Made by a program: the position numbers and the translations under genes. From the NCBI GenBank assembly GCA_022813865.1, contig JALDZX010000073.1, forward strand, positions 1 through 64,000: DNA of 64,000 nucleotides, in the 5' to 3' direction. The stretch is from Xylographa opegraphella (Eukaryota). This document shows positions 25,375 through 31,348 of this stretch, one piece after another. Under the pieces are notes generated by a model. The model was not told the DNA's origin. It searched no databases and was given only the letters and a program-made list of their open reading frames with translations. The number at the start of each line of letters is the position of its first letter. Position 1 is the stretch's first letter.

Positions 25375-27719
25375 TCACTGCGGCCACGATTGCTGAGGCT
25401 GGCCGGGTCGCGGGAAGACGGGTATTGTCTCCATTTGCTCGAGACCGCCCAAGGTGCCCTGGCTTGCTTGCCAGCCTTGGCCTGTTTGCTGGTTGACAAA
25501 GGCGCTTTGCCGGAAGGGGTTCGTGTTGCCGGTTGGGTTTGGCATTAAAGGTAACGTGATGGGGGTGTGTGATTGGGACTGCGGCGTTGAGCGCGCGAAT
25601 GGGTTTGTGCCTGTTCGCGTCGGCTGAAGGGGCTGTGCGGACTGTTGAGGTTGCATTTGTTGCTGGGGTGAAAGAACTGGTTGGGGGGATTGCATCGCTT
25701 GTGGGAAAAACGAGGACGTGGAAGAGGAGGGCATGGATTGCGTGTTTTGGACCGGTAGAGGCGAGTAAAACAGTGTCCCTTGTGCTGATGCAGGTTGCTG
25801 GGAAGCTAAGTGCCGCGCGAAAGGGTTGGTAGCTTGCCGGTTGAGAGGCGAGGTTAATGGTGTACCCGAATATGGAGGAGTTGTGGAGGCTGTGGGTTGG
25901 GGCATCATCGATTGTCGAAAGGGGTTCGTAGATTGTGGTTGCTGAGCTGCTGCGAAAGGGGACGATTGCTGCCCTGGAGAGAAGGGACTTGGTTGGGACG
26001 AGAACGAAGCAGCTTGCCCTTGCGGCATATTCGAAAGTGGCTGACTAAGTTGTTGCTGAATCTGCGTCGGCGGCTGAACGGTAGACTGTTGAGAATATCC
26101 CCCAAATCCAGCTTCAGTAAATTCGGACTGCATTTGCCGTGGCTGTGACTGTGGCTGTGGCTGTGGTTGTGGTTGTGGTTGTGGTTGAGGTTGTGGTTGA
26201 TACTGCTGAAACATTGTCTGTCCGAAAGAACTGCTCCCGCTGAAAGAACCATTCGGTTGCTGCTGTTGCTGATTCGGCATTCCAGTATAATTTGGTTGTT
26301 GGGCAAATGCTTGCTGTTGCTGATATTCATATTGAGGTACGGGCTGAAAATTTGAGATTTGCTGCTGCGGCTGAGCGATCATAGGCTGCTGATTTGCCTC
26401 TATCGACTCGAAGAAATCAATAAGATCCGGTGCCGGGCCCTTGAGCTCATTACTGGATGATGCCGCTTGAGGTTTCTCAGGCTTAGGAAAGCTTTGGCTG
26501 GAGGCTACATTGGTAGTACTGGTCTTATTGTTGTTGACTGGTGCACGCGTGCCATTGCTCGTAGACTTGCCGCTCTTCTTAGCTTCCTGCTGTGCTAAAT
26601 ATTGCCTTCTGTTAACCTCAAAATCAGGATCGTTAAGATATTCTTCTAGTGAAGCGGTCAAGCTCGTAGGCGCATGCTTCAGTTTGGGAATCTCAAGTCG
26701 TGTGGCGTTCTCGTATTGCCTTGCCACGCTGAGATATTCCACTACATCATTCGTCTGCTTACTGAAAGTCTTATAGATCGCCAGGGCTCGTTCGGCATCA
26801 TATTTGGACATTTCAAAATAGTGTTCTATGCTGATTTAGTTATAGCACCCAGCCTTAGGGATATTGTTTAGTTGCTACCTAGAACGTTGATGGTCCCTTC
26901 GTTCATGACATGATACAGTATCAGCAAGTCCATTGTAAGAAGGCGAAAGGCTGTTAGTGAAATCTCATTTTCCGGTTCCCTACTCAGCATCTGCACAAGA
27001 TTTGGTCAGTACACCATGTTTCTTCTATATTTTGGGACCATTACATCACATTTCAGCAGCGCTGCAATCTGCTTCTGTACACTTTCAGTCTCCCTGAGCA
27101 AGCCTTTATCGATGGTCTGCCTCTTGAGCCGGCCGGGACCCTCGCGAACCCAATCAAGCTTAGTATCTCTATAAGATTTTGCTCGTGATAGGATATAATT
27201 GTAGTAATGCCGGATGTTGCCTCCCTGTTCTTGCACTAACAAAGCAGTCCAGGTCAGCGAGCAGTCCAGAGCAATTCGTACTATAAGCTCATAACCCATC
27301 AATTTGCCCTTGTTGGATATTGGCCTTTTTGTATACCACTAGTTCTGATTTGATATATTCTTTTATGCACTACGTACCATCGGAGAAGTTACTAATAGCA
27401 AGCTTTGAAGGTGATTCGGCTAGGAATTTCAATGTGACGTTAGGCTCGCCCTCGCGAATCATCAAATGTACAATGATCAAGCCCTTAAATACTATGGTCC
27501 ATGTTGAATCTCGCAATCGATTGGTCAGTGTTCGGAATACCTCTGCTACCCCCGCTTCTCCAGCATGTGTGGCGATGAGAATATGCTCGACGTATTTCGA
27601 TTTGGGGGCAGCAAGCTGTTGCATTGTAAGTCAGCGCATGGCCACACCAATGCTGTGTGGTCTGGCCGTACCTTTATCTTCGTCCCACCTTTCACGGACT
27701 TCTCGAAAGAATTCGACAT
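25375..27719 (-). CDS. YAP1801: ANTH-domain clathrin assembly protein (AP180/CALM), multi-exon
   Basis: MSNSFEKSVKGGTKIK|LAAPKSKYVEHILIAT...RLRDSTWTIVFKGLIIVHLMIREG. Clathrin-box-like DLIDFF, several NPF motifs and a Q-rich tail. Confidence 0.93.
26140..26199 (-). repeat. Coding hexanucleotide microsatellite (PQ repeat) in the ANTH gene
   Basis: (TGGYTG)n on the + strand, encoding QPQPQPQP... Confidence 0.9.
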
Positions 27720-28743: not shown

Positions 28744-28994
28744 GGGTCAGAGATGCCTTCATCGCGTCCGTTGAAGTAACAAGGTGTGTGTGCCGAACGC
28801 CAAAATCACTCTCCCTCCACACCCAATCAAGCGAACCACTTAAGCCCCGTGAAGGGAGAGTTCGCAAGGTCGGGTGGGAGAGATCGCTGTCATATGTTAC
28901 ACGCTAGGCTTTCATCATCTGCACCTGTTAGCAACATCTACGATGATACATTGTTGAAGCGGAGAACTTACATTTTTAAAACTTGGAAGGATGA
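28744..28994 (-). ncRNA. SNR45: snR45/U13-type box C/D snoRNA (18S rRNA helix 45 ac4C guide), intron-containing
   Basis: 5' guide AUCCUUCC (28992-28985) is antisense to the 18S 3'-end GGAAGGAU, followed by AAGUUUUAAAA. C box AUGAUGA 28918-28912. Second guide ACCUUGUUAC (28785-28776) is antisense to 18S GUAACAAGGU. D box CUGA 28750-28747. Motifs AGCGAUCU and GGACGC match yeast snR45 as I recall it. Confidence 0.88.
28919..28971 (-). other. Spliceosomal intron (53 nt) inside the snR45 snoRNA
   Basis: GTAAGT donor at 28971, GCTAAC branch at 28932-28927, CAG acceptor ending at 28919 immediately before the C box. Confidence 0.85.
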
Positions 28995-29156
28995 AGAAGG
29001 AAAAGAAACAACTTTGGAGCGGGAAGATGAAATAGAGCTGTTGCTAGATAACTTCGGGACTAGTCTTGTGTAGAGCTCTTCAGCCTTATGTAGCTCGAGC
29101 TTGGGCAGGAGGCATTATTCTGACAACGATTCTGTCTGTTGTGCCTTGGAGCTCGA

Positions 29157-31348
29157 ATGCTGCTCTGCGTAGGCAAAAGAGGCTTTCATAAATACGAGTC
29201 ACTTTGCTCTAGCTATTTGGAGATTTCAAAATTCGTACGGGGTGAGAATCGTTTGGGCTCTCCGCGGCGATTTAATGGGCGGAGCAGTTGCGGAGGCCAT
29301 ACCTTGAGCCGGCGGTTGCATTACAGTCATCGATCACTTTCAAATGTCTCCAGTAAATCCCCAGAAGCCGAACTTTTTGATAAATATAAGTCGTCGCGTA
29401 AGGTTTTATGTTTCAGTGGTTGAACACGCTAATCATTGGAAAGTATCGTTCCCATCTGCCACTCATGAGATCCATAACCTCGAGCGACCAGATTTCCCTC
29501 GGCAAGAAGTAGTTCTGCATGGCTATCTAGGCTCGCGAGCGGATCTGTCAAAAAATCTGTATTTTGTCCCTCTTCTCAGCAAGGATCTCAGCCATAGTAT
29601 TCAGATTGTCTCTTCCGCCAAATCGATCGGAGGACGAGAACATCTCGCCCACGAAAAGCTGAAAACTCTCGACTCAAATACCCCTGTAGTGGTTAGGGGT
29701 TTGCTTAAAGTCCGAGTCCCGGCAGCTAGTAATGATCTTGGAGACGTGAAGAAAATCAAAACGCAGGAGGTAGAGTTATGGGATGTGCAACCTCTCAATG
29801 AGTTCCCGAAAGACATCGTTATTACTCCTGAGATGGTTTTTCCGCCTGAGTCACGGCATCTTCAGATACGGAAAGACAGATCGTTGCGGTCTGCACTCGA
29901 TTTTCGTTCACAAACTGCTACTATATGCAGAGATGTTCTTAGCAGAGACTTTGGCTTTACAGAGGTCGAAACTCCTGTACTGTTCAAGTCTACCCCGGAG
30001 GGGGCTCGTGAGTTCGTCGTACCTACGCGACGGAGAGGTCTGGCATATGCCTTGCCTCAAAGTCCTCAGCAGTTCAAGCAAATACTTATGGCTAGTGGTG
30101 TCTCCAAATACTATCAATTTGCGAGATGCTTTCGCGACGAAGATAGAAGAGCAGATCGACAGCCAGAATTCACTCAGGTTCGCAAGGGATTCCCTGGTTT
30201 GAAACAAGGCTGATAAGCTCCAGCTCGATCTAGAAATGTCATTCGTCAGTGGTGAAGATGTGATGGCATGCATAGAAATTCTTGTCAGGCGTCTATGGAA
30301 TGATATGCTGGATATCAAGCTACCCTCTCCATTCCCTCGAATGACCTACCACCAGGCAATGTCCACTTTCGGCTCAGACAAACCAGACATACGACTTGGC
30401 ATGGCAATACATAGAATTGGCCTTCTCTTACCCGCGGGACTTATTCGAATGGTAACTTCTCTACCAGACCCAATTCTCGAAGTAATGCTCTTCCAGTTAG
30501 GAGCGAATGATTCGAATCCAGGAACGACCAGGAAATTCATCAACGACTTTCTTGACTCCCCAGAAGGATTACAGTTTAACGACAACGTAGATGGTGGCCC
30601 TGGAATATTCGTGTATAACACAAAACAGCCCATGCAAGGGCTGGGGCCCTTCGGCTTTGAGGCTGCGGAGGAGATAGAGAGACTACTCGAACCCGAGCCC
30701 GGTGATCTGCTAGTGTTGCAAGCGCGGAAGAACGAAGATTTCTATGGAGGTTCTACCATGATTGGCAATCTACGACTAGCTCTACACAGAGCTGCCGTCG
30801 CTCAGGGTCGTGTGCCTGCTCCGAAAGGCTTTGAACCGCTTTGGATTACCGACTTTCCACTCTTCTCTCCCTCGTCGGCCTCTGAACCTGGACAGGGCGG
30901 TGCCGCGGGGCTGGCTTCAACGCATCATCCTTTCACGTCACCAAAATCCGCTGAGGATGTTGACCTCCTCCTCAGCGATCCTTCGAAGGTCATCGGAGAG
31001 CATTACGATCTGGTCATGAACGGCGTCGAATTAGGAGGTGGTAGCCGCCGCGTACATAATGCCGAAATGCAGAGGTACATTATGGAAAAAGTCTTGAAAA
31101 TGACGCCCGAAAGAGTCGAGGAGTTCTCACATCTGTTGGAAGCACTGCGAGCGGGCTGTCCTCCGCATGCTGGTATTGCACTTGGTTTCGATAGACTGAT
31201 TGCTGTCATGCTCGGGCGAGACTCCGTGAGAGACGTGATTGCTTTTCCGAAGAGCGGGAAGGGGGAGGATGTGTTGGTGAAGAGCCCCAGTGCGATTAGT
31301 GAGGATGTATTGAAGACGTATCATCTTCGGCTGCGTGAAGAGGAATGA
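29157..31348 (+). CDS. MSD1: Mitochondrial aspartyl-tRNA synthetase, 3 exons
   Basis: Motifs [64 protein letters not shown] and [15 protein letters not shown]. Basic N-terminal presequence. Introns at about 29398-29443 and 30178-30223. Confidence 0.95.

Follow-up and report, generated by a model that had tools for sequence, protein, structure and literature searches.

A conserved box C/D snoRNA gene of snR45/SNORD13 architecture in filamentous ascomycetes, probably divided by a spliceosomal intron at box C

The first 64,000 nucleotides (nt) of contig JALDZX010000073.1 of Xylographa opegraphella (assembly GCA_022813865.1), the 64-kb stretch called here the window, raise the question of what is encoded on their minus strand next to MSD1, the gene of mitochondrial aspartyl-tRNA synthetase. 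At this place, two short tracts antisense to the 18S ribosomal RNA (rRNA) accompany the boxes C and D of a small nucleolar RNA (snoRNA), and an intron-like segment ends exactly at box C. An initial annotation had proposed a guide for rRNA acetylation of the snR45/U13 type, split by a spliceosomal intron. We find that the gene is real: it encodes a structured, conserved box C/D snoRNA whose architecture and targets are those of snR45/SNORD13; it is probably an independently transcribed gene of the snR45/SNORD13 (U13) type, split by an intron and acting through the mechanism proposed below.

Layout of the gene

The elements of the gene all lie on the minus strand and are listed 5' to 3'.

28993..29004, minus strand: pyrimidine-rich leader, probable region of transcription start, a CT-rich tract conserved in alignment A3
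28992-28985, minus strand: guide 1 (GS1), ATCCTTCC, 8 nt antisense to 18S GGAAGGAU in the 3' strand of helix 45
28972..28990 (region), minus strand: downstream part of exon 1, with AAGTTTTAAAAAT after GS1 and the last base at 28972; positions 28990-28977 are the 5' strand of terminal stem P1
28971-28919, minus strand: predicted spliceosomal intron of 53 nt, recognised by its GT-AG borders, its branch motif and the alignment of homologs
28971-28966, minus strand: 5' splice site of the intron, GTAAGT
28932-28927, minus strand: branch site of the intron, GCTAAC, with the branch A at 28928, 9 nt before the 3' splice site
28921-28919, minus strand: 3' splice site of the intron, CAG
28918-28912, minus strand: box C, ATGATGA, abutting the 3' splice site
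28907-28909, minus strand: GCC, 5' strand of a short internal stem beside boxes C and D, paired with GGC at 28757-28755
28892-28890, minus strand: D'-like UGA
28810..28889, minus strand: variable central helix with a conserved apical CCC/GGG hairpin, between the D'-like and C'-like motifs
28809-28806, minus strand: C'-like GUGA
28764..28800, minus strand: conserved hairpin GCGTTCG (28800-28794) / CGGACGC (28770-28764), whose 23-nt loop presents guide 2
28785-28776, minus strand: guide 2 (GS2), ACCTTGTTAC, 10 nt antisense to 18S GUAACAAGGU, just 5' of helix 45
28750-28747, minus strand: box D, CTGA, 25 nt beyond the end of GS2
28743-28728, minus strand: 3' trailer, TAAAGACTTGGAAAGG, the 3' strand of P1, which mimics the rRNA target and would mask GS1

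When the minus strand was read out, the tracts, the intron and the boxes of the initial annotation proved correct to the base in every coordinate. The gene is longer than the span given at that time (28744..28994), its 3' trailer at 28743-28728 pairing with exon 1. About 125 nt of structured sequence separate box C from GS2, and the pattern ATGATGA-N(100-130)-ACCTTGTTAC-N(15-45)-CTGA occurs a single time in the 64 kb (0/100 shuffles match). A profile search with nhmmer likewise found the gene in single copy within the window. The strict intron pattern GTAAGT..CTAAC..AG is found at two loci of the window, both strands counted, against 0.53 expected; given this rarity, chance does not account for its lying precisely between the 5' tract and box C.

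As in snR45 and SNORD13, GS1 stands upstream of box C and is complementary to 18S GGAAGGAU, and GS2 is held in a hairpin loop and is complementary to the 18S sequence just 5' of helix 45. Both of the antisense tracts first noted around helix 45 are confirmed by the readout, and their predicted pairing is conserved in the relatives described below. We take GUAACAAGGU to be positions 1760-1769 and GGAAGGAU positions 1788-1795 of the yeast 18S rRNA, counting back from its 3' end, so that the two tracts would flank C1773.

Relatives in other fungi and the intron

An intron-agnostic DNA pattern run on viral contigs returned 16 matches, taken for chance without inspection of the loci; it was too unspecific, and the scan of metagenomes was therefore based on a protein alignment of MSD1. 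The N-terminal part of MSD1 was aligned with metagenome-derived fungal orthologs, 80/582 confirmed relatives were kept, and RNA homologs were sought in these 80 loci by a motif scan and next by an nhmmer profile of the body from box C to box D. A homolog is present in 30 of the 80 loci, in every case upstream of MSD1 and on the strand opposite to it; the nhmmer E values range from 8e-46 to 1.5e-20. The motif and nhmmer searches returned no RNA homolog in the other 50, among which L020, L032, L039, L046 and L053 hold less than 410 nt upstream of the MSD1 match, and L023, L045 and L050 have sufficient upstream DNA yet gave no nhmmer match. In the window, MSD1 (29344-31348, plus strand) is divergent and lies about 350 nt from the snoRNA gene; this head-to-head layout is kept in the 30 loci, which suggests a shared bidirectional promoter region.

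Together with the window there are thus 31 copies, 29 of them distinct since L035, L036 and L038 are identical in the RNA, and 26 sequences form alignment A3. The MSD1 proteins of the metagenome loci are 32-60% identical to that of the window, whose best named protein matches reach 55-56% identity. Three loci (L041, L043, L044) are Chaetomiaceae-like (77-82% to named proteins) and one (L025) is Cladosporium-like (85-95% to named proteins), so that, judging from these protein identities, the homologs cover at least two classes beyond the lineage of the window.

GS1 is identical in 25 of the 31 copies, the others reading ATCCCTTCC (three copies), TGACCTTCC (two) and TGACCCTCC (one), and the core CTTGTT of GS2 is invariant in the 26 sequences of A3. 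Box C is ATGATGA in 25 copies, ATGAAGA in four and GTGATGA in two; box D is CTGA in 26/26 aligned sequences. Guides, boxes and intron site are all kept in the 30 syntenic homologs, and the lack of conservation in relatives that the initial annotation had named as telling against it is not the case. Upstream of GS1, many homologs carry A/T-rich or TATA-like elements, which a motif search placed at -35 to -40 in 8/31. The most divergent homologs (L035, L036, L038 and L040, at about 1656-1960 on the minus strand) have AUGAAGA as box C and TATAAA 35 nt upstream of GS1.

An insertion of 49-118 nt (median 58) separates GS1 from box C in 31/31 copies, and no intron-less copy was seen among them. As placed by our script, which used some of these same signals, the 5' end of the insertion is GTGAGT in 14 copies, GTAAGT in five, GTAAGC in four, GTACGT in three, and GTATGT, GTTAGT, GTAGGT, GTAAGA and GTATGA in one each; a YTRAY branch motif precedes the end by 9-18 nt, and the 3' end is CAG in 19 copies and TAG in 12. 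Box C follows directly upon the 3' splice site in 28/31, the exceptions being an extra A in L021 and L042 and TATC in L052. The G-T and the G at position 5 of the intron are invariant in A3. Over the same 26 sequences, mean pairwise identity is 0.65 in exon 1 and 0.675 between box C and box D, against 0.24 in the interior of the intron, which is the random level. When splice signals are conserved and the interior between them is free of constraint, as in this non-coding gene of very divergent fungi, the pattern is at the level of sequence the signature of a spliced intron. Canonical GT-AG borders, the usual branch distance and a host-typical length, which characterise the introns of fungal small RNAs, are found in 31/31 copies, and the host genes of the window carry introns of similar kind (56 nt in an ANTH/AP180-like gene, 46 nt in MSD1). 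The proposal of a spliceosomal intron at box C is in this way borne out, for its signals and its site, by every copy, and we infer that the spliceosome removes it.

Two of these introns are peculiar in sequence. The intron of 118 nt (L042:2053-2170, minus strand) is twice the usual length and full of repeats of the CTACAAT / TTATAAT type, and the one at L028:1309-1363 (minus strand) includes a false box C, an ATGATGA that lies 32 nt before the true one.

Folding of the RNA

RNAduplex pairs exon 1 of the window with the trailer in the terminal stem P1, of 13 pairs and -15.2 kcal/mol. P1 is found in 29/29 distinct copies, with 8-18 pairs (median 14), and its mean energy over these copies is -17.1 kcal/mol for cognate partners, against -13.2 for non-cognate combinations of exon and trailer and -5.8 for shuffled trailers. 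Its core, CCUUCC opposite GGAAGG, doubles as the tract antisense to the rRNA and almost never varies. At the second position beyond it, by contrast, the pair is A-U in 15 copies, G-C in six, C-G in three and U-A in three, and the following position is G-C in 15, U-A in nine, A-U in three and G.U in one. The variable part of P1 thus drifts while staying paired and the core stays fixed, so that the core is held by something else, which we take to be the rRNA target.

The distance from P1 to box C is 2-10 nt (median 4) after in-silico splicing and 53-122 nt in the unspliced form, and that from box D to P1 is 0-10 nt (median 3). Boxes C and D with a terminal stem, as known in the snR45/SNORD13 class, are thus present, and the stem adjoins the boxes only without the intron. 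Because the spacer to box C is short only then, the geometry of a terminal stem and kink-turn exists, as modelled, only in the spliced RNA. This supports, on modelled grounds, the earlier suggestion that splicing would be needed to build the C/D core. The masking of the 5' antisense tract by a 3' extension, a trait of SNORD13, has its predicted equivalent in the pairing of exon 1 with the trailer.

Beside the boxes, RNAalifold on A3 gives the GCC/GGC stem, a small CCC/GGG hairpin and the 7-bp hairpin GCGUUCG/CGGACGC. The three pairs of the GCC/GGC stem are kept in 22-24 of the 26 sequences. Those of the 7-bp hairpin are kept in 21-26, with U-A replaced by C-G in one sequence and U.G by C-G in three; this hairpin also appears in the single-sequence fold and holds GS2 in its loop. 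RNAalifold on sequence-based alignments recovered neither the variable helix nor P1, and both were assessed instead by per-sequence folds, RNAduplex and a model-fitted alignment.

Between the D'-like and C'-like motifs, all 29 distinct copies fold into one long irregular hairpin of 70-88 nt (mean z against shuffles -3.7, below -2 in 27/29), so that a variable helix stands where yeast snR45 and snR4 have theirs. Its pairs were evaluated in alignment A5, fitted to a covariance model of the central hairpin and hence leaning toward the structure of the window itself: 71.1% of the cells hold standard pairs (63.5% in shuffles, 44-54% with slid partners), 87 cells are changed on both sides (50.5 ± 6.3 in shuffles, 44-60 with slid partners) and the covariation score is 0.295 (0.189 in shuffles, not above 0.194 with slid partners), values that 0/500 shuffles reach in each of the three cases.

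At the apex of this helix (28860-28835 and homologs), the sequence CUCUCCC-UUCAC-CGGGCUCAAGUGG is conserved. The small apical hairpin is replaced by a UUCG tetraloop in L021, L048 and L052, the last with a compensating stem AAUC/GAUU. Two further stretches outside the guides are near-invariant, AUGAUGAAAGCCUAGCGUGU after box C (28918-28897) and GCGUUCGGCACAC before GS2 (28800-28786), at about columns 157-180 and 286-300 of A3. Their GUGU and ACAC could correspond to the pseudoknot proposed for snR45 or to protein-binding sites; since these stretches are invariant, covariation is uninformative there.

Identity, function and rival readings

The snR45/U13-type identity put forward in the initial annotation is supported, on sequence grounds, by the conserved guides and by the match of the architecture to published snR45. 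According to Sharma et al. (2017, PMC5464676), snR45 and snR4 have a conserved 5' end that is complementary to 18S and stands upstream of box C, a second guide in the loop next to a well-supported helix downstream of C', and a helix of variable form between D' and C'. In the Saccharomyces cerevisiae snR45, which guides the acetylation of 18S C1773 by Kre33, nts 1-15 form GS1, whose partner is 18S 1781-1798, and nts 120-127 form GS2, whose partner is 18S 1760-1767 (PMC5464676). The 5' tract, the loop and helix of GS2 and the variable helix are all matched here. The yeast RNA differs in that no intron is described for it (PMC5464676) and in that its GS1 is 15 nt long, against 8-10 nt here; no similarity in sequence or model is detectable between the two.

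In the SNORD13 of vertebrates, plants and metazoans, two tracts likewise flank the cytidine of helix 45, and the 5' tract starts an independently transcribed RNA. For pre-SNORD13, Thalalla Gamage et al. (2022, PMC9670809) report a 3' extension that hides the 5' antisense tract by pairing with it in stems IV and V, and the stem of exon 1 and trailer is its analog here. However, SNORD13 is much shorter, lacks a long central helix and is not reported to have an intragenic intron; some SNORD13 genes are located within host-gene introns, as stated in PMC9226516. The Or-CD1 and SNORD13-like RNAs of Drosophila and other Diptera are also helix 45 acetylation guides in which the relation to an intron shapes the 5' end, but there the RNA lies inside a host intron or lacks the 5' tract, whereas in the present case it is the snoRNA gene that contains the intron, and its 5' tract is conserved. 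The genes of fungal U3 are likewise independently transcribed C/D snoRNA genes with a short GT-AG intron in their 5' part, beside a tract pairing with pre-18S, and the splice signals of both match the fungal consensus (PMC5832005). Introns occur in 138/310 fungal U3 genes and paralogs differ (PMC5832005), whereas all 31 copies have one here, at a single site.

On this basis we infer splicing, the mature ends, the assembly of a small nucleolar ribonucleoprotein (snoRNP) and a function in acetylation. The primary transcript would contain, in this order, GS1, the 5' strand of the terminal stem, the intron, box C, the variable helix, the GS2 hairpin, box D and the trailer. Excision of the intron would bring the stem of exon 1 and trailer within a few nt of boxes C and D, allowing a kink-turn and the assembly of core proteins. 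As has been suggested for vertebrate SNORD13, the trailer would pair with GS1 and keep it masked until it is displaced or trimmed off. Within the pre-40S particle, the partner of GS1 would be the 3' strand of helix 45 (GGAAGGAU) and that of GS2 the sequence just 5' of it (GUAACAAGGU), which would leave the cytidine of the CCG motif (C1773 in yeast numbering) single-stranded for Kre33/NAT10.

Variation of the guides and of their targets bears on this pairing. According to PMC9226516, helix 45 has the canonical sequence GGUUUCCGUAGGUGAACCUGCGGAAGGA in human and two yeasts, it reads GGUCUCCGUUGGUGAACCAGCGGAGGGA in Neurospora crassa and Podospora anserina, and the CCG motif is retained in this variant of Sordariales. 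GS2 of the three Chaetomiaceae-like copies is GACCUUGUUAC (G-ACCUUGUUAC), whose extra G fits the C of GGUC in the helix 45 of N. crassa and P. anserina and is seen in none of the other GS2 flanks of A3, which were read by eye and not tabulated. The Cladosporium-like copy has UGACCCUCC (CCCUCC) where L022 and L037, of the nearest guide type, have UGACCUUCC (CCUUCC). Its GS1 would be a clean compensatory change if the 18S rRNA of Cladosporium ends, as we presume, in GGAGGGAUCAUUA (GGAGGG); the papers listed by a text search for it do not contain this string.

Several points weigh against the identification and must be set beside this evidence. The RNA, its splicing and its ends are predicted from the DNA, and the 18S target sequence was taken from the literature, the organism's own 18S lying outside the window. 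The continuous complementarity of GS1 covers only 8 nt, themselves sequestered in P1. On GGAGGGAU, the Chaetomiaceae-like GS1 AUCCCUUCC has no advantage over the canonical guide (8 pairs with one G.U in both cases) and is therefore not counted as a compensatory change, and the other such change depends on a presumed end of the Cladosporium 18S. The script located splice sites via GT..G and YAG, which makes the tallies of signals partly a matter of construction; the insertion, its range of lengths and the invariant G-T..G columns of A3 are independent of it. Finally, the Rfam models of snR45/U13 gave no match on the unspliced genomic DNA, either over 20 kb or over 341 nt at E values up to 10.

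Among the rival readings, one accepts the intron and holds exon 1 to be only a strand of the precursor stem, the mature RNA starting near box C and using GS2 alone, like SNORD13 of Drosophila. GS1 is indeed sequestered in P1 in every copy, and Diptera SNORD13-like RNAs devoid of the 5' antisense tract still support helix 45 acetylation (PMC9226516). However, the rRNA-complementary core of exon 1 is near-invariant while the rest of P1 covaries, which points to an outside partner, GS1 is essential in yeast (PMC5464676), and the TATA-like elements of the eight copies mentioned above place the likely start near GS1, as for capped SNORD13; we consider a mature RNA without GS1 unlikely. That the RNA binds the 3' end of 18S in a role other than acetylation, as a chaperone of helix 45 or in the timing of dimethylation or of site D cleavage, seems improbable too. 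U3, U14 and U8 are C/D snoRNAs acting in processing and not in modification (PMC5464676), and the 2022 survey leaves open that NAT10 acts alone in fungi other than budding yeasts (PMC9226516), but the cytidine between the two tracts is that of snR45 and SNORD13, the architecture is theirs too, and even the variant helix 45 of Sordariales retains the CCG motif.

Very little credit can be given to the view that the intron-like segment stays in the RNA as part of a long 5' leader, its splice-like motifs having another purpose. P1 is able to form with or without the segment, but only GT..G, YTRAY and YAG are conserved in it, its interior being at random identity and its length varying between 49 and 118 nt; the host introns of the window are similar in size and signals, and the spacers around boxes C and D become symmetrical only once the segment is removed. 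A canonical guide for 2'-O-methylation of 18S, which the boxes C and D and an rRNA antisense tract of 10 nt might evoke, is hardly tenable at all: a gap of 25 nt separates the end of GS2 from box D downstream, neither a D' nor a CUGA adjoins this tract, and GS1 precedes box C, so that the fifth-nucleotide rule cannot apply and the arrangement of a methylation guide is absent.

The preferred reading, that of an intron-split acetylation guide, can be extended by a proposal that we hold tentatively and consider rather doubtful. The intron would be an obligatory and selected step of snoRNP formation, in which the spliceosome, possibly with junction factors over GS1, would license the stem and kink-turn; helix 45 acetylation in Pezizomycotina would then depend on splicing, and cap-proximal introns beside the 5' domain that pairs with rRNA could be a device of biogenesis common to the independently transcribed C/D snoRNAs of fungi, U3 and this RNA.

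The initial annotation had suggested that covariance scans of genomic DNA might miss or truncate the gene, and the absence of any Rfam snR45/U13 match on unspliced sequence agrees with this. The 341-nt search returned only chance-level fragments of microRNA, snoZ17 and sR60 families, and in 20 homolog loci, also searched as unspliced DNA, nothing relevant reached the gathering score. Published snR45/SNORD13 homologs are themselves 'not highly conserved' according to PMC9226516. In the same text, SNORD13 counterparts were not identified in 'Fungi (other than budding yeasts)' (Bortolin-Cavaillé et al., 2022, PMC9226516), and the fungal survey of Canzler et al. (2018, PMC5824354) places the snR45 family 'exclusively' in Saccharomycetaceae. 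Within the literature searched, U3 and U6 are the only small RNAs named as frequently interrupted by introns (PMC5832005). This RNA is absent from the parts searched of the snoRNA catalogue of N. crassa (PMC2780460), and term searches in the available text of a paper on 17 conserved fungal structural RNAs and of the SnoBIRD, Sni445 and NAT10 structure papers found no mention of the gene. Open-access literature and bioRxiv on snR45 in Neurospora and Aspergillus describe no such gene, though an unnamed complementary DNA of this RNA may have been recorded earlier in A. fumigatus, and the conserved RNA strings had only unrelated primer matches in open-access full texts. The intron-bearing form of the known snR45/SNORD13 guide family was thus not found in print within the open-access literature. 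The Neurospora orphan snoRNA CD53 (212 nt, intergenic) was considered as an ortholog and rejected, its published sequence being unrelated.

The 31 copies provide a candidate helix 45 guide for filamentous ascomycetes, where a counterpart had been reported missing; the splitting of the gene at box C by the intron, together with sequence divergence, is a plausible cause of the earlier oversight. If this reading is true, the RNA would be the third small structured RNA, after U3 and U6, regularly to carry a spliceosomal intron, here in every copy seen. In that case the masking trailer, described so far for vertebrates, would be common to fungi as well, which would favour common descent over convergence.

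The other features of the window are as follows. An ANTH/AP180-like gene with a Q/P-rich C-terminal half (25375-27719, minus strand, ATG at 27719) lies about 1 kb downstream of box D on the same strand as the snoRNA; its intron of 56 nt (27671-27616) reads GTACGG..GCTGAC..CAG. Further away, the segment 36784-36940 (minus strand) has a chance-level Rfam match to a Coxiella small RNA family, scoring 17.8 bits where the gathering score is 172 (E 6.9). On the other side of the snoRNA gene, the 46-nt intron of MSD1 (30178-30223), deduced from the reading frame, would begin with the unusual 5' splice site GTTCGC.

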